A DNA stretch of 64,000 nucleotides from a phage. Positions 13,140-21,402 of this stretch are shown in pieces (position 1 is the stretch's first letter; each line of letters starts with the position of its first letter). The notes beneath the pieces are model-generated. The model saw only the letters and a list, made by a program, of their open reading frames with translations, made no database searches and had not been told where the DNA came from. The position numbers and the translations under genes are program-made. The DNA is taken from the sequence record PX969468.1; one strand, 5' to 3'.

Positions 13140-13669
13140 TTCAAATCTACCTCTGGTGGTGCCAACCACATAAATGGCGGCAAGTCTAGACGGTTTTTCT
13201 TGTCCCATACAAAATATGCATATGCCTGCCCATCCGTTCTACCATTGGATTGGAATGACGGGCGCTTAGATATTGTGATCACAGTGGTAGGTGCATTATC
13301 AAGCCACCATTCAAATCTGGCCTTGCTTTCCAGAAAATTAAGACGCAAAAGCATAATAACTACGTCGGCATCTTTCAACGCCTTGTCCACAAACTCACGG
13401 GCCAGGCTGTACGGCGGGTTGGTGATAATACAGTCAACATGGTTGTATTCTGTATTCAGATAGTCAACACCTTCTTGGATTTCTCCCCATGCAGATCCTA
13501 ACGGCATACGGGAGTAGAACACACCTGAGGCACTATTCCTGCAAGGCTCTAAGTAGGTCCAGTCTTCTGGGAACGGAATAAGGTCATACAGCCCTTCTGC
13601 ACACCACTCCGGTGTCACATACTCATCGTAGGCGTTACGTTGTTCATCAGGTTTTCTAGCACAAGTCAT
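13136..13669 (-). CDS. DNA N6-adenine (or N4-cytosine) methyltransferase, small phage Dam-like
   Basis: ITNPPY catalytic motif (motif IV of amino-methyltransferases). Confidence 0.55.
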   Translation of the reverse strand: MTCARKPDEQRNAYDEYVTPEWCAEGLYDLIPFPEDWTYLEPCRNSASGVFYSRMPLGSAWGEIQEGVDYLNTEYNHVDCIITNPPYSLAREFVDKALKDADVVIMLLRLNFLESKARFEWWLDNAPTTVITISKRPSFQSNGRTDGQAYAYFVWDKKNRLDLPPFMWLAPPEVDLK

Positions 13670-13720
13670 GCAAATCTCCAGATCATAAAAGCCCTCCGAA
13701 GAGGGCTTTAGAATTAATGT

Positions 13721-14770
13721 TTAAGCTTCTTCGACAATTCCTGCACCCAGGATTTTTTCATTGAGCTCTTTTGCTGTTTTAATAATATTGTCCACCAGAC
13801 GCTTGCGCGTCTTATCTTTCACCTTAACCTCTTCACCGCCGTTCAGAGTAGTCTTCAATTGAGACAGAATATCCTGAAGTTCAACGACAGAGAATCTCTG
13901 CAGATCTTCTGAAGTAATCTCACCCAGGGCAATTCTGACGGTCTCGCCACTTTCCATCTGCAGATTCAGGAACACAGTGTGAACATCACCTTTCGAACCA
14001 CCCGCTTTTGCAGATTCAACAGCATGAACTAACTCATCTAAAGATGTGCACTGGTGAATCTCCGGAAGACCTGCTTCACCTAACACGCCTTCTTCATCAC
14101 CTTTTGCCAGAAGCTTTTTCGGTTTTTGTCCGTTCTGGATGCGTTGTATGTTGCCTTCATCCAGAATAATAGCTCCAGTGCGTGCTGCCAGCTCTTCTCC
14201 GTCCAACCACACTTCGCCACCAGCTGTGATGGATGCGATCTCATCTTCTGTCAGCACCCCACCGTAGTATTTTTCGATCAGGCGTTCAAAACGTTTTTTC
14301 CAGTAGCTGACCTGAGTATTCATGTTCACACCGTTACCATAAGTGCCACCTTGATAGTAGTGGAACATAAACTCTGTGTCCGGAGCCACAGTACGTTCTT
14401 TACAACCAAGCCATAAGATTGTTCCAGCAGAGCAGCACATCCCTTCAGCATGTGCAACAACGCTTGCCTGAGACTCGCGGAATGCCTGCAGATAAGCCAT
14501 TGCAATGTGCACGCAACCTCCAGGGCTATTGATGATCACCCGAATGCTTTCTTCCGGCTGAGCCATACGGATCGTCTGCAGACGAGACATATGATCTTGT
14601 AAGTCTTCCAAATCGTCGATATAAAGAACGTGGTCAACAACAGGTGTTGGGTAGCTGTATGTTTCCATAATACCACCCGGCATACCAAACATTTTATTAC
14701 TCATAGGTTCGAAACCGTTCTGTTTTTCTTTCATGCCGTGTACCATGGTGCTGCGAGGTGTTAAATTCAT
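13721..14770 (-). CDS. ClpP/S49-fold serine protease with charged coiled-coil C-terminal extension (possible prohead protease-scaffold type)
   Basis: INSPGGCVHIAMAYLQAF and GMCCSAGTILWLGC resemble ClpP/SppA motifs; the C-terminal third is charged and helical. Confidence 0.55.
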   Translation of the reverse strand: MNLTPRSTMVHGMKEKQNGFEPMSNKMFGMPGGIMETYSYPTPVVDHVLYIDDLEDLQDHMSRLQTIRMAQPEESIRVIINSPGGCVHIAMAYLQAFRESQASVVAHAEGMCCSAGTILWLGCKERTVAPDTEFMFHYYQGGTYGNGVNMNTQVSYWKKRFERLIEKYYGGVLTEDEIASITAGGEVWLDGEELAARTGAIILDEGNIQRIQNGQKPKKLLAKGDEEGVLGEAGLPEIHQCTSLDELVHAVESAKAGGSKGDVHTVFLNLQMESGETVRIALGEITSEDLQRFSVVELQDILSQLKTTLNGGEEVKVKDKTRKRLVDNIIKTAKELNEKILGAGIVEEA

Positions 14771-14830
14771 GAGAAATCCTTAATATTGGAAGTTGAAAGC
14801 TATTTATTTAAACCTGATTCACATTTACCT

Positions 14831-15142
14831 TTATTTAGCAATCACTAGGGAATACTTACGATTGTTAGAAGCATCACAGCTCAATGATTGCCAGTCTACC
14901 ACATACCACGTATCATTGTCAACAATTACTTTATCGCCTGTTCTGTAGCAGGTACTGCTTTCAATAATCCGAGACTCGATAAAGAATCTGTGTCGGCGCT
15001 CACGTAGCAACGCTAAGTTGATTATATCACCACCACTGTCCTTGATCCACACATTCTTGGATCCTTTATTTGCCAAAATTGTCTCGCCGTTGTAGACAAA
15101 CAGGCAGTATATTTTATTCAGTCTCTCTTGTATTGTAGCCAT
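14831..15142 (-). CDS. hypothetical protein
   Basis: Track ORF; AGGAGA upstream; downstream of promoter 15173..15201. Confidence 0.5.
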   Translation of the reverse strand: MATIQERLNKIYCLFVYNGETILANKGSKNVWIKDSGGDIINLALLRERRHRFFIESRIIESSTCYRTGDKVIVDNDTWYVVDWQSLSCDASNNRKYSLVIAK

Positions 15143-15172
15143 ACTATCTCCTTCTACTTGTCTTGTCCGATA

Positions 15173-15201
15173 ATAATATCTAAAGCTTACCTGTTTGTCA
15201 A
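15173..15201 (-). promoter_or_regulatory. sigma70-like promoter (TTGACA-17-TATTAT)
   Basis: Consensus hexamers at 17-bp spacing on the minus strand upstream of CDS 14831..15142. Confidence 0.5.
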
Positions 15202-15245
15202 CAACTGTTTTAGATATTTAAGGGTGGAATAACCACCCTTCTATA

Positions 15246-16034
15246 TTACTCGGAAACAGGGGTCCAAATATGATTTGCACGATCCTCGATAAGATTGAGT
15301 GCAATCTGACGACCCAACCCGGAACGAACGACATCATCTGGACTATCAAAGCTGATCATTCCAACCTCAGGATCTGGATGGCGAGTAAAGAAATCCGTCA
15401 CCCATGCAAGGCCAGATTTACCAGGGATGTCACGTTGGCTATTATCACCCATAATTACAAGAGTGGCTTGATCAGAGATCCTTGTGATAATTGACAACAT
15501 TTCTTCAGGGTTAGTTTGCTGTGCCTCGTCAATCAGGACAAAGCATCGCTCATCGAAACTACGACCACGAATGCTTTCAACTTCACAAATCTCTATACGA
15601 CTGTTCTGACCGTCTCCCAGCATTGCGGCAAAAGCACCTTTGCCAACACGGCGACAAATCGTGTCCATCATGCTTCGAAGATAGGGCCACAGTTTCTGCA
15701 TTGCATTTCCAGGTTTAAATCCTGAAGTCTTTCCTGTCTGAACGTAAGGGCGTGCAACAATGATCTTATCAATCTCGTTCTTACGCAGAAGATCACCTGC
15801 ATATGCAGATGCCATGAACGTCTTACCGGATCCAAACACACCGTTTACAATGATAATCTTACGCGACCCTAGATAATCAAGATACTTTTGCTGCTTTTTA
15901 TTCATTGGTCGGAGAGCTGGAGCGGTGTGCTCTCGTTCGTCAGCAAATTTTTCAGCAGCCTTACGCAGGCGATCAGATTTGCGAGCCTCTCTAGCTTCAT
16001 CACGCATGCGTTTTGTTTCTTTAGCTCGACCCAT
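15246..16034 (-). CDS. phoH: PhoH-like ATPase
   Basis: Walker A GVFGSGKTFMA, Walker B VLIDEAQ, and overall PhoH-like sequence. Confidence 0.75.
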   Translation of the reverse strand: MGRAKETKRMRDEAREARKSDRLRKAAEKFADEREHTAPALRPMNKKQQKYLDYLGSRKIIIVNGVFGSGKTFMASAYAGDLLRKNEIDKIIVARPYVQTGKTSGFKPGNAMQKLWPYLRSMMDTICRRVGKGAFAAMLGDGQNSRIEICEVESIRGRSFDERCFVLIDEAQQTNPEEMLSIITRISDQATLVIMGDNSQRDIPGKSGLAWVTDFFTRHPDPEVGMISFDSPDDVVRSGLGRQIALNLIEDRANHIWTPVSE

Positions 16035-16072
16035 GTTGGGACTCCTTTCAGATTGAGATGTGTCAAGTGCTT

Positions 16073-16423
16073 TTACTGCAATAGTTTTTCAATAGCCGCT
16101 TCCATACTGCTTGCAACAGCCTGAACTCGGATATTCATCTCTTCTTGGTGGATCAGCTCCTTAAGCTCTTTAATGGTAAATTCTTTAGAGAAACCTTCCA
16201 CCATAATCTTGTGTAAGGCTTCTTGCGTGTCTACCTGCAAGAACTTTTCCAGTTTGTTGGCAGAGGCTTCTAAATCAGCCCGAATGCGAGGGTCATCTGT
16301 GCGATTCAGCATTAGGCGTAAGCCATCAAGATTAGTAGAAATAGCGTCTGCATGTTGAGTAACTAACCGTGGCAAAATGAGATCTACAAACTTATTAGCC
16401 AAATCGATACGTTCTTGTGTCAC
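16073..16423 (-). CDS. hypothetical protein
   Basis: Track ORF; GTG start overlaps the stop of the upstream peptide gene. Confidence 0.45.
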   Translation of the reverse strand: MTQERIDLANKFVDLILPRLVTQHADAISTNLDGLRLMLNRTDDPRIRADLEASANKLEKFLQVDTQEALHKIMVEGFSKEFTIKELKELIHQEEMNIRVQAVASSMEAAIEKLLQ

Positions 16424-16533
16424 TGTTGCACCCCCTCTTCATCTTCATGATGTTTCTTTTCACGCTTGTGTTTTTTCTTAAGCTCAAGCGCAATCTCTTT
16501 CTTGTACGCCTTCTTCAAGGCTTTTTTAGCCAT
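16420..16533 (-). CDS. small Lys-rich basic peptide (37 aa)
   Basis: GGAGG RBS; MAKKALKKAYKKEIALELKKKHKREKKHHEDEEGVQQ. Confidence 0.45.
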   Translation of the reverse strand: MAKKALKKAYKKEIALELKKKHKREKKHHEDEEGVQQ

Positions 16534-16597
16534 TTGGCACCTCCTCTGCTTTCATTTTACGATAATTATACCTATCTAAACAAAGCTTTGTCAACAA

Positions 16598-17071
16598 CTA
16601 GTCTACCTGGACCCAACCGCCTGCTACTTTTTTAAACATTCTTTGGTTATCGCTACCTCGGAACGGTTTCTTGGTTGGTAAATCTTTTACATACTTACCG
16701 TCAATGATGATATCAGCCAGTTTAAGAACATCACTAGAGATATGGTCAAATGTGAACCCAGTATATACAAGAATAGTTTTCTTGTCACCAAATTTTTCCT
16801 TAATTTTCTCCATCAGGCTAATAATATCTGGCTCATTATAGTATGCTAAGGGTTCTCCACCCAGCAGAGAGATACCGCACACAGACGGGTTATCTAAATC
16901 TGACAAGATTTTTTGCAAGTCTTCTTCAGTGAACTCTCTTCCCTTATCTTTTGACCAAAATGCCTGATTAAAGCAACCAGGGCAAGCGTGTGGGCACCCA
17001 GATACCCACAAGGCAGTTCTAATACCTGGCCCTTCGGTATAAGATATTTCTGTGTATCCGGCAATGTTCAT
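16598..17071 (-). CDS. nrdG: anaerobic ribonucleotide reductase activating protein (radical SAM)
   Basis: CxxxCxxC-type cluster (GCPHACPGC), GGEPL motif, NrdG size, adjacent to nrdD. Confidence 0.8.
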   Translation of the reverse strand: MNIAGYTEISYTEGPGIRTALWVSGCPHACPGCFNQAFWSKDKGREFTEEDLQKILSDLDNPSVCGISLLGGEPLAYYNEPDIISLMEKIKEKFGDKKTILVYTGFTFDHISSDVLKLADIIIDGKYVKDLPTKKPFRGSDNQRMFKKVAGGWVQVD

Positions 17072-17193
17072 AGATACTCCGCATCACATTCAGGACAATG
17101 CCAAATAAAATCATCAAGTGCCTTGCACCAACGAAGATTGCACTTACAACCGCAGTGTTTACAAATTTTTACTTTAAAGCCACCAGATGACAT
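17068..17193 (-). CDS. small Cys-rich zinc-ribbon-like protein (41 aa)
   Basis: AAGGAG RBS at 5 nt; seven Cys (CKHCGCKC...C...CPEC); stop overlaps the nrdG start. Confidence 0.5.
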   Translation of the reverse strand: MSSGGFKVKICKHCGCKCNLRWCKALDDFIWHCPECDAEYL

Positions 17194-17254
17194 AACAACT
17201 CCTTAATTTACAACGGACTGAAGGGCTAGAATAAAGCTGGCCCTTTGTGTGTTA

Positions 17255-18415
17255 TTATTTATTAGCAAATTTCTTCAAATGTTCTTCTACTAGCTCGAAT
17301 ACCTCCGGTCTGTAGTAGAAGAACTCTCGACAGCCATCAAACTTCTCTGTGAAGTTGATTTTGTATTGGCTCAAGGCTTGGTGCATAGCTTTTTCTAAAG
17401 TTTGCATGTCGTCTGTTGTTCCTTCCCAAGTTTTTATAACATGTAGATCAGAGAATCTAGCACCAGCTTTTTTAGCTCTTTTTAACACATCTTTTCTTCG
17501 TTCATCTACCCGGACACTCACACCAATTTTCATCATAGTTGGTACTTCCAGATCGTCAACCATGATATAAAGGCTACCATGTTCATGAGATAAGAAGCCG
17601 ACTTTAGCACATTTTTGACAGCCAGCTTTTTGGTTGATGTGGACAAACGGTTTTTGTGTGAACTCCCCGTGAATCGGACAGATGATAGTGACCTCTGTCT
17701 CCCTATTAACATATTCCACCCCGGAATAATCGTATTTATCTTTATGGATAGCTCTGGCTCTTGCCTCAAACCTTTTAGCCACCTCAGATGCTTTCTTTCT
17801 CTGCGTCTTCCTACTAACCTCGGCCACCTTCTTCTTCCCGCACTCGGGGCAACCTTTTCCACTTGGTGCATGGTCATGAGGTCTTTGTGGGAAGTGAGCA
17901 CCACATGTATTACAGATTATCTCCACTTTATCATTACCGGTTTTATAATTTACAAGAGAGTAATCATACTTATCGCCATGAAGCGCTTTTGCCTCAGCGA
18001 TCCACTCTTCAGTAGTCTTTCTCTCAGTTCCTCCACACTTACGGCAACCCCCCTCGCGGAGATGGTTATCAGGCTTTTGCTCAAACTCGCCGTGAACAGG
18101 ACAAACAATCACAACTTTAGTTTTAGCATTTACATACTCTACCTTAGAGTAATCATATTTATAATTATACTTAGCCTCGGCCTCCGCTTTAAATTTTTCA
18201 GCAGAAGCCGCTCTTTCTGCTTCAATCTGACATTTTGGGCAACCCTGTTTTTTACGGAGGTGATCTCCAAGAGTTTTCTTAAATTCTCCATGCTCAGGGC
18301 ATATAATTACAACCTTGGTGTGTGCACCCACATATTTGACTTTGGAATAATCATATTTATCACCATGAACTGCTTTCGCCCCCTCTATAAAATCTTCGGT
18401 TGTAAGTTTTCTCAC
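17255..18415 (-). CDS. repeat protein: four tandem ~60-aa zinc-ribbon-like modules plus C-terminal T5orf172/GIY-YIG-like domain (possible mobile endonuclease-like protein)
   Basis: Four repeats of YDYSKV.YV...TKVVIICPxHGEF...HL...GCxKC; C-terminus LYIM...MKIGVS...R...DLHVIK...REFF. Family assignment is from memory. Confidence 0.45.
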   Translation of the reverse strand: MRKLTTEDFIEGAKAVHGDKYDYSKVKYVGAHTKVVIICPEHGEFKKTLGDHLRKKQGCPKCQIEAERAASAEKFKAEAEAKYNYKYDYSKVEYVNAKTKVVIVCPVHGEFEQKPDNHLREGGCRKCGGTERKTTEEWIAEAKALHGDKYDYSLVNYKTGNDKVEIICNTCGAHFPQRPHDHAPSGKGCPECGKKKVAEVSRKTQRKKASEVAKRFEARARAIHKDKYDYSGVEYVNRETEVTIICPIHGEFTQKPFVHINQKAGCQKCAKVGFLSHEHGSLYIMVDDLEVPTMMKIGVSVRVDERRKDVLKRAKKAGARFSDLHVIKTWEGTTDDMQTLEKAMHQALSQYKINFTEKFDGCREFFYYRPEVFELVEEHLKKFANK

Positions 18416-18481
18416 TGCTGAATCCTCTTAGTTCTCGTCTTTGAACTAAGGGTGCCACATCCTTGTGGCTTTTGTCAAGTA

Positions 18482-19744
18482 TCAGCAACCACAACTTCCG
18501 TAGTGCTTAACTCGCTCGATAACTTCCGCTTGCTTACCTTTATTGTAAGGACGGGAGTTAGGACTGGAAAGGTATCCAGATACACGCCTGATCACACTGA
18601 TCGTACCTTCCTCATGGTTTCCACAACAAGGGCATATAAAACCTCTTGGAGAGGCTTTAAATTCTCCCTGGAAACCGCACTTGAAGCATTGGTCAACAGG
18701 CTGGTTTATACCGAAGTACATAATGTGTTTATACCCGAAGTCAACAAGAGCCTCTAAAGCATCCAGGTTGTTTTTCAGGTTAGGTGTTTCTACGTATCCG
18801 ATGTTGCCACCAGAGGAGATCATAGCAAAACCTTCCTCATACTCCCACTTATCAAAAGGAGAGCTATTTATCCATACTGGCTGATGGAAACTGTTGGTGA
18901 GATATTCATGCTCGTGCTTCAACACTTCCGGATATTCACGATCCAGACAGGTTGCAGCTTTATAGCATAGACTCTCAGAAGGAGTGCCGTACAAGCTAAA
19001 TGCTAGTCTACTTTCCTTCTTGTATCGCTCACAAGCATCTCTCATGTGCTGAAGGATTTCAAGAGCTAAAGCCTTGTCACCCTCTCTACCCAAAATCTGA
19101 CAGGTTTCATACACACCGATATACCCAATACTGATGGAAGCGTACCCGTCATAGAAGAGTTTATCAATACTCTCTTCAGGATCCAGGCGAGCAAGAGCGC
19201 CTTCACACCACATGATGGGGTTCTGCCCTGCCTTTGTTCCTTTTAGACGATTAACCCTTACAAGGTGAGCCTCGTATGCAAGATCCAAGTATTCGTCAAG
19301 AACTGCAAAGAAATCAACACCTTCCGTCTTGGCTTTTGCCGCAATCATTGGCAGGTTAAGGCTAACAACACCTAAGTTAAATCTACCAAGGTATTTCTCC
19401 TCGCCTGTTTCCAAGTCATTGTATTTGCTAAGAAAACTCCGGCAACCCATGCTCGTTACTTTGCCATCTGTCGAGCCTGTCACTTTTCTATTTAGTGGTA
19501 CAGATACGAAGTCAGGGTAGATACGTTCTGCACAGCATTCCAGAGCTAATCGTTTCAAATCATAGTTAGGATCCCCAGGGTTCATGTTGACACCCTCTTC
19601 CAGGAAGAACAGCACTTTAGGGAACACAGGTGTGATACGTTCTTCACCAAGACCCATTTTGTGGACTTTCAAGTAGTTTTTGGTAATCATTCTACCAAAG
19701 ACCGAGGTATCCAGTCCTAAACTTAATGTGATGAATGGAGTCTG
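18482..19744 (-). CDS. nrdD: anaerobic ribonucleoside-triphosphate reductase, exon 2
   Basis: In-frame extension upstream of the track ATG reads QTPFITLSLGLDTSVFGRM..., continuing T4 NrdD-like sequence; glycyl-radical motif RVSGYL and CxxC pairs at the C-terminus. Confidence 0.7.
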   Translation of the reverse strand, partial: QTPFITLSLGLDTSVFGRMITKNYLKVHKMGLGEERITPVFPKVLFFLEEGVNMNPGDPNYDLKRLALECCAERIYPDFVSVPLNRKVTGSTDGKVTSMGCRSFLSKYNDLETGEEKYLGRFNLGVVSLNLPMIAAKAKTEGVDFFAVLDEYLDLAYEAHLVRVNRLKGTKAGQNPIMWCEGALARLDPEESIDKLFYDGYASISIGYIGVYETCQILGREGDKALALEILQHMRDACERYKKESRLAFSLYGTPSESLCYKAATCLDREYPEVLKHEHEYLTNSFHQPVWINSSPFDKWEYEEGFAMISSGGNIGYVETPNLKNNLDALEALVDFGYKHIMYFGINQPVDQCFKCGFQGEFKASPRGFICPCCGNHEEGTISVIRRVSGYLSSPNSRPYNKGKQAEVIERVKHYGSCGC

Positions 19745-20541
19745 CTGTCTCCTCTCTGTGTTTCCACAGGGCCAGACTATCTCTTACTCTACTTCAATAA
19801 GATAATAACCCTTTATTGTGAGATGCTTACCTTCGGCATTTCCTTCGATAGCCCTATGAACGTTACCTACGTTCAAATTTAAGGCTTTTGCACAGGCATA
19901 AAGTGAAGGATATTCACCCACCAAGGTTTTCCCTTTATATGCCTGCACTTTCCTATAGCACTTACCTGGACAAAGTCCTGTTCGGAAAGCATGTCTCTTA
20001 TTATCTTCCGGCAAAACCCACTCTAGGTTAGACGGATGATCATTCAATGTATTGCCATCTTTATGATTCACTTCCCAGTTTTCAGGATCTTCTGGGACAT
20101 CTGGCAAACAATACAAGGCAACAATCCTTGAGGTTTGGATTCGAATCTTTTTACCTTTGTGGTTGAAAGAGTACATATAACGGCGTTTAACATGCTTGTT
20201 ACCTTTTCCATAACCTCCCCACAATATTGGGTGTAGCATTCCACGTTTTCCGTATACGTTTCCAACCTCATCAATCACATAGTTTGATTCTTCACCATTA
20301 AGAATGATCTTTTTCATAGAGCCTCTCCATTTCGAAGTTAGTATTTCAACTAACCCCTACACTACTTGGTTCAGAAATGTTTGTCAAGCATCTCTGCCTT
20401 TCGTTAGTCGTTACAACCGTTCCAACTCCTGTAAGAACTAGTCACGGGATTGGCATAGCTTTCGCCTTAGCGTTCCCCGTTAGCCGGATTTACCGACCCC
20501 TCTTATGAGGTTAGGAGAGTTTTACAACGGCCAGTTTGTTA
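19745..20541 (-). mobile_element. putative group I intron interrupting nrdD (about 797 nt) carrying an HNH endonuclease ORF
   Basis: Exon 1 ends ...TSVNG on a U; exon 2 resumes at QTPF after a G; the interval holds 224 nt non-coding, an HNH ORF, and 39 nt. T4 nrdD is known to carry a group I intron. Confidence 0.65.
19784..20317 (-). CDS. HNH homing endonuclease (intron-encoded)
   Basis: HNH motif VNHKDGNTLNDHPSNLEWVLPEDNKRHA. Confidence 0.65.
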   Translation of the reverse strand: MKKIILNGEESNYVIDEVGNVYGKRGMLHPILWGGYGKGNKHVKRRYMYSFNHKGKKIRIQTSRIVALYCLPDVPEDPENWEVNHKDGNTLNDHPSNLEWVLPEDNKRHAFRTGLCPGKCYRKVQAYKGKTLVGEYPSLYACAKALNLNVGNVHRAIEGNAEGKHLTIKGYYLIEVE

Positions 20542-21402
20542 ACCGTTGACAGAAGTTAACGTATTGATTTGGTAGAGCAAAGTCTGCATACTATCAAACA
20601 CGTCTTTATCTGTCATTTGCATTGCAACAGTCTCAGCATCTGGCAACCAATGTTCCTGACAAAATTTAAGGTTCTTCTCGTAGGTTGCTTCAGCATACTG
20701 TGCCAGATAATGATCAATATGGCTCATGGTCTGACCACCATATTGAGCACTAGCTACTGCACTAGAGATTTGGCTAAGGATTGTTGTTGCAACCCCTATT
20801 GACTTCGGCTTACTGACATGGGCGTTGCCAATGTTGAATCCGTTTTCCAGCATATCCGGATAATTTACCAAACAACAGTTTGTTAACGGACTGATCAGGT
20901 AGTCAAGATCATGCACATGGATGAAGCCTTTGTTGTGCTCTTCGGAGACACGGTCTGGCAGGATCTGTGTTGATGCAAGATGTTTGCTAAGGATGCCTGC
21001 AAGCAGGTCACGATGAGTATGAACATGATTAGTAGGCTTATTTGCGTTTTCTTTTGTAAATTCATCACAAGTTCGATCCAAGAAGCCACTAATATCTGCA
21101 AGCAGTTTTCCACCTGCCTCTCTGTTATTATCTCTTGTCTGTCTGTACTGGATGTATTCTCTGGCTGCACATTTTAAACCCATATCCATAAGAGCATCTT
21201 CAACAAGGATATGGATATTTTTTACAGAGATCGTGCACTGATCGGTTGGTAGATTGTTAGCAACAACTTCATTAACCGCACAGGCGATCCGGTAAGCTTC
21301 TTCTTCAGTATGTCCAGACTCAAGTAAGGCGGACTCTGCCGCCTTGATCACCTTAATTCCGTTATAGAACTCTTCTCTACCGTCCCGTTTTACAACTTTC
21401 AC
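20542..21402 (-). CDS. nrdD: anaerobic ribonucleoside-triphosphate reductase, exon 1
   Basis: ATP-cone N-terminus (KVVKRDGREEFYNGIKVIKA); ...KGFIHVHDLDY...GFNIGNAHVSKPKSIGVATTI... matches T4 NrdD from memory; ends at an in-frame stop inside the intron. Confidence 0.7.

Follow-up and report, generated by a model that had tools for sequence, protein, structure and literature searches.

A 37-codon gene on the minus strand of a 64,000-nucleotide stretch of phage DNA (PX969468.1; the whole stretch is hereafter the window) almost certainly encodes a genuine, selected protein of the phage subfamily Vequintavirinae. Genome comparisons indicate that this peptide and the 116-aa product of the gene directly behind it make up a pair, present together in every genus that has either, and substitution patterns indicate that selection acts on the amino acids of the first 20 residues of the peptide, its tail being free to vary and losable. 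We lean towards the small protein acting together with its partner. The features of the locus are as follows.

16420..16533, minus strand: gene for the 37-aa small protein, orthologue of rV5 ORF118, Murica gp173 and bas56_0177 (PHROG 7670)
16540..16546, minus strand: Shine-Dalgarno sequence GAGGAGG, 6 nt 5' of the small-gene ATG
16565..16594, minus strand: sigma-70 consensus promoter TTGACA-N18-TATAAT (12/12), beginning 3 nt past the nrdG stop codon
16420..16423, minus strand: GTGA stop/start overlap of small gene and partner gene, a predicted translational coupling junction
16073..16423, minus strand: partner gene, directly 3' of the small gene, for a 116-aa acidic protein of four predicted helices (rV5 ORF119, phrog_7650)

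The initial annotation had described a peptide gene at 16420-16533 that follows a GGAGG site and overlaps the next gene, and the gene is there exactly as described, on the minus strand: its ATG occupies 16533-16531, its 37 codons specify MAKKALKKAYKKEIALELKKKHKREKKHHEDEEGVQQ and its TGA occupies 16422-16420. The existence of the gene is not new, as it is an annotated member of a family without an assigned function. In this region the window shares 96-98% identity with genomes of Vequintavirus, the rV5-like E. coli myophages, with matches in 121 phage records, and the ORF is already called as a CDS for a "hypothetical protein" in Murica (gp173, YP_009593950.1), AlexBoehm/Bas56 (bas56_0177, QXV75728.1), O157 typing phage 14, FV3 (FV3_00110) and ECP26. 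In rV5 it is ORF118 (ABI79183.1), listed as a protein of 37 aa, 4482 Da and pI 9.8 with no homologues at that time (PMC3606486 Table S3). The Murica and AlexBoehm products are 100% identical to that of the window and rV5 ORF118 differs by one residue, H28Y; position, promoter P118, Shine-Dalgarno sequence and GTGA overlap are the same in rV5, Murica, bas56 and FV3 as in the window. Residues 1-37 align to positions 1-37 of 46 of the HMM of phrog_7670, a family of unknown function (E=2e-20, 73.6 bits). Separately, E. coli Vequintavirus is matched at 97-98% identity in this region by 19 records titled 'UNVERIFIED: Campylobacter phage' (MG0656xx, host given as Campylobacter jejuni); mislabelling, or contamination by E. 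coli phages, is the probable explanation.

Signals around the ORF set it apart from its background. Its Shine-Dalgarno sequence is invariant in 16 Vequintavirus copies, and the Murica record annotates a ribosome-binding site. When the 174-nt gap between nrdG and the partner gene is shuffled, only 0.6% of the shuffles contain an ORF that starts with ATG, reaches 37 codons or more and has a Shine-Dalgarno 5-mer. Of the first-ATG ORFs in the window that encode 30-50 aa, 154 in all, only 2 have GGAGG at a matching distance; this rarity makes a chance ORF unlikely. The promoter at 16594..16565 is the only 12/12 sigma-70 site within the scanned 5.5 kb (13500-19000), and both of its hexamers are invariant in the 16 Vequintavirus copies, with a variable spacer. 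Transcription is predicted to start near 16558, which gives a leader of about 24 nt before the small gene. Because this perfect site follows directly on nrdG, the small ORF would be the first cistron of a transcription unit; the site is P118 of the rV5 annotation (PMC3606486 Table S4; DQ832317). Promoter-like sequences (TTGACA-N17-TATGAT or TAAGAT) also lie upstream of the small gene in Mydovirus and GAP31-like phages, and none was found upstream of it in PVP-SE1, Hena1 or a metagenomic lineage whose partner is 66% identical to that of the window (lineage 2). The 5' leaders of the Mydovirus and GAP31-like phages contain a GC-rich hairpin that is absent in Vequintavirus (CCTGCCG...CGGCAGG; GCCCATC...GGTGGGC; L004:2242-2320 and L015 upstream of 1501), which may be a 5' stabiliser or a processing site.

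All neighbouring genes share the minus strand with the promoter and the Shine-Dalgarno sequence. Their order of transcription is nrdD (split by an HNH gene), a 386-aa endonuclease-like ORF, a 41-aa zinc-ribbon ORF, nrdG, the small gene, the 116-aa ORF, phoH, a 103-aa ORF and a gene for a ClpP-like protease. A separate 11/12 sigma-70 promoter at 15201-15173 (minus strand), P121 in the rV5 annotation, precedes the 103-aa ORF after phoH (14831-15142, minus strand; phrog_5456, a family of unknown function). The small-gene operon is therefore probably limited to three genes, those for the 37-aa protein, the 116-aa protein and PhoH. Further upstream, nrdD, the anaerobic ribonucleotide reductase gene, lies in two ORFs, 20539-21402 and 18482-19690 (minus strand), interrupted by an HNH_3 endonuclease gene (19784-20317), and the AlexBoehm record gives nrdD as a join of two pieces. 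The 386-aa ORF between nrdD and nrdG (17255-18415, minus strand) carries DUF723 and DUF4379 treble-clef zinc-finger repeats and a C-terminal MUG113/T5orf172 (GIY-YIG-like) domain; among the best matches it is common only to O157 typing phage 14, other Vequintavirus genomes aligning from query position 147, and it looks like a mobile homing-endonuclease-type insertion. A second conserved small protein is encoded by the 41-aa ORF (17068-17193, minus strand), which overlaps the nrdG start; this protein has two CxxC pairs (MSSGGFKVKICKHCGCKCNLRWCKALDDFIWHCPECDAEYL), hits phrog_20137, a family with the label 'ribonucleotide reductase' (E=2e-24), and is possibly a zinc-ribbon accessory of NrdG/NrdD.

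The small protein belongs to a compact family. Protein searches used the 37-aa peptide extended by six real in-frame upstream codons as query, and later a three-genus alignment profile. At 90% identity, the hits of a profile search through 5.8 billion proteins form 29 clusters. HMMER, run exhaustively over 1.84 billion representative sequences, returned only 8 members at 50% identity and placed the whole family in one phage subfamily, the Vequintavirinae. Every member is a stand-alone protein of 32-52 aa, and none forms a domain within a longer polypeptide. Orthologues occur in Vequintavirus, Seunavirus, Mydovirus, Henunavirus, the TH18 group and the Erwinia pEa_SNUABM phages. Lack of conservation, which the initial annotation had named as grounds against the gene, is thus clearly not what a homology search finds. 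With the Seunavirus orthologue as tblastn query for distant relatives, Seunavirus members were recovered from PVP-SE1 (ORF144), SSE121, GAP31 and 4MG. In Mydovirus (KB57, Mydo) and Henunavirus (Hena1), an ORF of 46-49 aa sits directly 5' of the partner homologue and overlaps its start; its product is homologous, reading MSKKALRKAYTKELALELRGKK... in KB57/Mydo and MSKRTLRKAYQKELAMALRTTK... in Hena1. Lineage 2 adds a 37-aa peptide, MAKKLLKKLYKRELAMEHKKKRKQNDKSKDYFEEEFK; IMG/VR holds few Vequintavirus genomes, and the partner search there yielded one locus only.

Aligned, the family falls into four parts: a near-invariant N-terminus, a basic run, an acidic patch and a genus-specific tail. The N-terminal motif is M[SA]K[KR]xL[RK]KAYxKE[LI]A[LM][EA]L[RK], with M1, L6, K8, A9, K12, E13, A15 and L18 invariant, and the window peptide carries all of these plus Y10. 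The distant orthologues (PVP-SE1 ORF144, KB57_139, Mydo_133, Hena1 gp045, pEaSNUABM56_00218 and TH18 peg174) have the same motif, basic run and acidic patch, and adjoin a phrog_7650-type partner on its 5' side, between ribonucleotide reductase genes and phoH. They differ from the window peptide in being longer (45-49 aa, with an extra genus-specific C-terminal segment such as LMQLVADAAARGNY) and in having Arg for Lys and a less low-complexity sequence, whereas their loci differ in having an endolysin gene between partner and phoH and, often, glutaredoxin/nrdAB instead of nrdG as the upstream neighbour.

Conservation is divided very unevenly along these 37 codons, which split into a core and a tail joined at a homopolymer.

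16474..16533, minus strand: codons 1-20, the conserved, putatively functional core MAKKALKKAYKKEIALELKK, consensus MSKKTLRKAYQKELA[LM][EA]LR, a predicted alpha-helix
16423..16473, minus strand: codons 21-37, a basic run and then an acidic tail, KHKREKKHHEDEEGVQQ, weakly constrained and apparently dispensable
16471..16476, minus strand: A6 homopolymer in codons 20-21, a natural indel/slippage hot spot

The 16 Vequintavirus copies represent 10 alleles. Polymorphism among them affects 7 of codons 1-20, synonymously in every case, and 8 of codons 21-37, 4 of which change an amino acid (H28Y/R, H29Y, E32V, V35A). Comparing codons 2-20 of the window with those of an IMG/VR Vequintavirus (L007) gives 5 synonymous and 0 non-synonymous differences; PVP-SE1 against the GAP31-like phages gives 8.5 synonymous versus 2.5 non-synonymous. 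Between genera, pS over these codons is saturated (0.8-1.1) and pN is 0.2-0.36, much of it Lys/Arg exchange, and the tail is unalignable. Inter-genus identity is 47-89% for the N-terminus of the small protein, 59-87% for PhoH and 24-47% for the partner; between the window and KB57, the respective values are 68% (first 19 residues), 59% and 27%. Conservation across genera and purifying selection together bear out the reality of the gene asserted by the initial annotation.

The tail has also been lost outright in nature. A frameshift allele with five instead of six A residues encodes 45 aa, keeping residues 1-20, continuing with NTSVKRNIMKMKRGCNSDTRTYRFG and stopping 28 nt inside the partner gene. 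It is present in the cultured phage vB_Eco_Alma, where it is an annotated 45-aa CDS, and in at least two distinct metagenomic genomes (L012/L013); an expansion of the A-run (+6 nt, two extra Lys) occurs in P0002. Replacement of the basic-then-acidic tail in a cultured phage suggests that it is dispensable. The Lys run is moreover a Vequintavirus peculiarity, other genera reading MSKKTLRKAYQKELALELR at that place. Since the Lys run and the acidic tail vary or get lost, the proposal of the initial annotation that this composition suggests a nucleic-acid- or ribosome-binding peptide rests on the least conserved features of the protein.

By tblastn, peptide and partner occur in the same phages, ~185 records, and are always adjacent. 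With Seunavirus-type queries the peptide and partner counts are equal in every host group (Klebsiella 29, Salmonella 13, Escherichia 8, Cronobacter 7, Enterobacter 2, Raoultella 2 and Proteus 2), and besides those ~120 Vequintavirus records carry both. The Erwinia pEa_SNUABM phages are the one apparent exception, in which the partner is present and too diverged for tblastn; the pair was confirmed in pEa_SNUABM_56, in TH18 and in the 66%-identity lineage. Partner homologues in Mydovirus (KB57, Mydo) and Henunavirus (Hena1) are 26-29% identical to the window protein. What flanks the pair varies, with nrdG or glutaredoxin/nrdAB on the 5' side and phoH or endolysin on the 3' side. The junction between the two genes is tight in 8 lineages, being an overlap of 4, 1 or 8 nt, or an 8-nt gap with the stop inside the next Shine-Dalgarno sequence. 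In the window, the small-gene stop shares 4 nt with the GTG of the 116-aa ORF at 16073..16423 (caGTGAc); the 66%-identical orthologue begins with an ATG at the aligned position, and the GTG is on that ground taken as the true start. The partner gene also has a Shine-Dalgarno-like GAGGGGG of its own before the GTG. Conserved adjacency and a tight junction despite changing flanks argue for joint action of the pair.

The two proteins are complementary in charge. Partner proteins of all lineages have an acidic pI (4.7-5.6; 5.2 in the window), and in all five lineages tested a peptide of +6/+7 faces a partner of -2 to -9; because most cytoplasmic proteins are acidic, this is weak evidence for a complex. 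From a shallow alignment, four helices are predicted for the partner (pLDDT 83), a fold that recurs in the BFVD models for its Hena1 and Mydo orthologues (TM 0.80-0.86). Conserved positions of the partner are concentrated in two of these helices, helix 1 (LAxxFVxLxxPRL) and helix 4. The peptide is predicted as one helix, with pLDDT ~90 over residues 1-20 and 53-65 in the tail.

Searches for relatives of known function returned little for either protein. The partner had no recurrent Pfam match (sub-threshold Ribosomal_S30AE, E=0.035, Phage_TAC_19 and Endonuc_Holl, in 1-2 of 8 orthologues) and no recurrent PADLOC match (HEC-02B 0.0017, Cas4b 0.0009 and Cas8g 0.016, scattered and each in 1 of 8 orthologues). 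We attribute the Ribosomal_S30AE, Phage_TAC_19, Endonuc_Holl, HEC-02B and Cas8g matches to chance, as they do not recur in the 8 orthologues. PDB sequence and fold searches with the partner gave no specific match, and Ni-SOD, its sole PDB profile match (E=0.15), was rejected. The small protein had no Pfam match at E<=1, no NCBIfam match and no match to the anti-phage defence and anti-defence models of PADLOC, and none to ribosomal, RNA-binding or DNA-binding families in Pfam, NCBIfam or the PDB; a PDB profile search retrieved only two non-significant, non-ribosomal chains. A ubiquitin-interacting-motif (UIM) helix (E=0.25-0.35, 14 bits) was rejected, as only an ELALxLR core is common and the residues before it are basic, not acidic; the UIM consensus has an acidic N-terminal flank and a conserved Ser. 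Mass spectrometry of rV5 virions does not list gp118 or gp119. Our literature search found no transcriptome or Ribo-seq of the subfamily and no functional study of the small gene; a transposon-mutagenesis preprint concerns phiKZ, not an rV5-like phage.

We propose that the small protein is an early, co-translated helical subunit working with its partner, a mechanism that, taken as a whole, we consider to have an even chance of being right. Host RNA polymerase would transcribe the small gene and the partner gene before the late genes, and ribosomes ending the small ORF would reinitiate on the partner, so that both proteins arise at a constant ratio. The +6/+7 peptide would then dock, by its conserved N-terminal helix, on the conserved helix-1/helix-4 surface of the acidic partner to form a small helical complex, and the basic run of the peptide would stay free for a polyanion, either RNA or DNA, or else for a conserved protein of the host, a contact that would be placed in the nucleotide-metabolism/PhoH phase of infection. 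Contact of the peptide with a polyanion is the least certain part of this proposal, and we give it low confidence. Coupling by the overlap itself appears not to be essential, as the A5 allele puts the small-gene stop 28 nt into the partner gene, and the lack of a promoter site before the small gene in lineage 2, PVP-SE1 and Hena1 also counts against the proposal.

The main rival is that the peptide is a stand-alone, host-directed effector, its 20-residue helix binding, on its own, some highly conserved machinery of the Enterobacterales (ribosome, RNA polymerase, nucleoid protein or protease). Adjacency to the partner would then reflect shared regulation only, and the idea of a ribosome- or nucleic-acid-binding peptide would fall under the same heading. 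Many small early phage proteins target the host, among them lambda CIII, T7 Gp2 and T7 Gp0.4. The hosts are all Enterobacterales, the peptide has a net charge of +6/+7 in every lineage, its gene is the first behind an early-type sigma-70 promoter, and its N-terminus is conserved at the level of an enzyme as the partner drifts to 24-30% identity. That the N-terminus is so much better conserved than the partner as a whole is explained by a conserved host target no less readily than by binding to the partner. However, co-occurrence and adjacency with the partner are perfect in the ~185 phage records though both flanks change, the peptide resembles no ribosomal or nucleic-acid-binding family, and its Lys-rich, low-complexity look is limited to Vequintavirus. 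We regard stand-alone action as possible, though doubtful. The invariant 20-residue helix (MSKKTLRKAYQKELAxxLR) could also be a host-takeover module directed at conserved machinery of the Enterobacterales, for example the ribosome, RNA polymerase, a nucleoid factor or one of RNA decay, with the co-translated partner as its carrier or regulator in a two-component early effector; this we offer as speculation and think rather unlikely.

A lysis-related or membrane-active cationic peptide is far less probable. The gene order peptide-partner-endolysin-phoH in Mydovirus, Henunavirus, GAP31-like phages, TH18 and pEa_SNUABM_56 would suit such a role, as would the predicted cationic helix, but the endolysin gene is not adjacent in Vequintavirus or lineage 2 and the promoter is of early type. 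The peptide also lacks the physical character: its mean hydrophobicity is negative (-0.26 to -0.49) and its hydrophobic moment (0.25-0.40) is no higher than that of shuffled sequences (0.24-0.27; fraction of shuffles reaching it 0.15-0.50), on which grounds type I toxin, membrane-active and holin-like peptides were rejected. Neither peptide nor partner shows a transmembrane-like segment.

Still less credible is a pure translational-coupling leader (uORF), in which the peptide would be functionless and its translation would load ribosomes on the weak GTG of the partner. The 4-nt GTGA overlap, the strong Shine-Dalgarno sequence of the small ORF as against a GTG start for the partner, and the tight junction in all lineages are what such a leader would have. 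Yet residues 1-20 are under strong purifying selection with synonymous sites saturated, the partner has its own GAGGGGG, the A5 allele persists without the overlap, and the junction RNA shows no significant fold against shuffles (z = -1.38) and no Rfam match. A regulatory leader, arrest peptide or attenuator was likewise rejected, as conservation is N-terminal and the C-terminus variable, with no significant RNA fold and no Rfam family. The reading as a chance ORF, or as a real feature on the other strand, is practically negligible: the codon-aligned antisense -1 frame is open in 7 lineages and a 72-aa plus-strand ORF spans 16417-16635, but an ORF with a Shine-Dalgarno sequence is as rare in shuffles as given above, the neighbouring genes and signals all lie on the minus strand, and the within-genus polymorphisms of codons 1-20 are all synonymous in the sense frame and all non-synonymous in the antisense frame (AAA/AAG becoming TTT/CTT; GCG/GCT becoming CGC/AGC), a substitution pattern that points to the annotated minus-strand frame as the selected one and effectively refutes this reading.

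Three kinds of known system serve as analogies for the small protein. The ribosome-associated E. coli proteins Sra/bS22 and bS21 are highly basic, helical proteins of ~40-70 aa, and they and phage-encoded bS21 resemble the small protein in size, high positive charge and helicity. Unlike them, it has no Pfam, NCBIfam or PDB match, its family lies within one phage subfamily, and its core is a specific 20-residue helix instead of a generic basic composition. Lambda CIII, a small early phage protein that inhibits FtsH, has its activity in one conserved helix and is a functional analogue in size (~40-55 aa), single conserved helix and early host-type promoter; it differs in showing no sequence similarity, and the gene of the peptide described here comes with an obligate partner gene behind it. 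Translationally coupled leader ORFs share the short first cistron whose stop overlaps the next start. However, the peptide itself appears to be selected here, at its N-terminus and not at a C-terminal arrest motif, and no alternative RNA structure is detectable at the junction of small gene and partner, as a regulatory leader would have.

The importance of the finding is modest, as the gene is not new and the mechanism is at the stage of inference. The case illustrates that amino-acid composition can mislead on function, the Lys-rich and acidic features being the least constrained parts of the protein. The rV5-like phages, PVP-SE1 and the Klebsiella Mydovirus phages are widely used biocontrol or therapy candidates, and in rV5-like phages and their relatives most early genes have no known function. 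Among these, an anonymous 37-codon ORF is now a testable member of a putative subfamily-wide pair, with a core conserved at the level of an enzyme and a seemingly dispensable tail, and the frameshift allele of vB_Eco_Alma provides a ready-made natural mutant.
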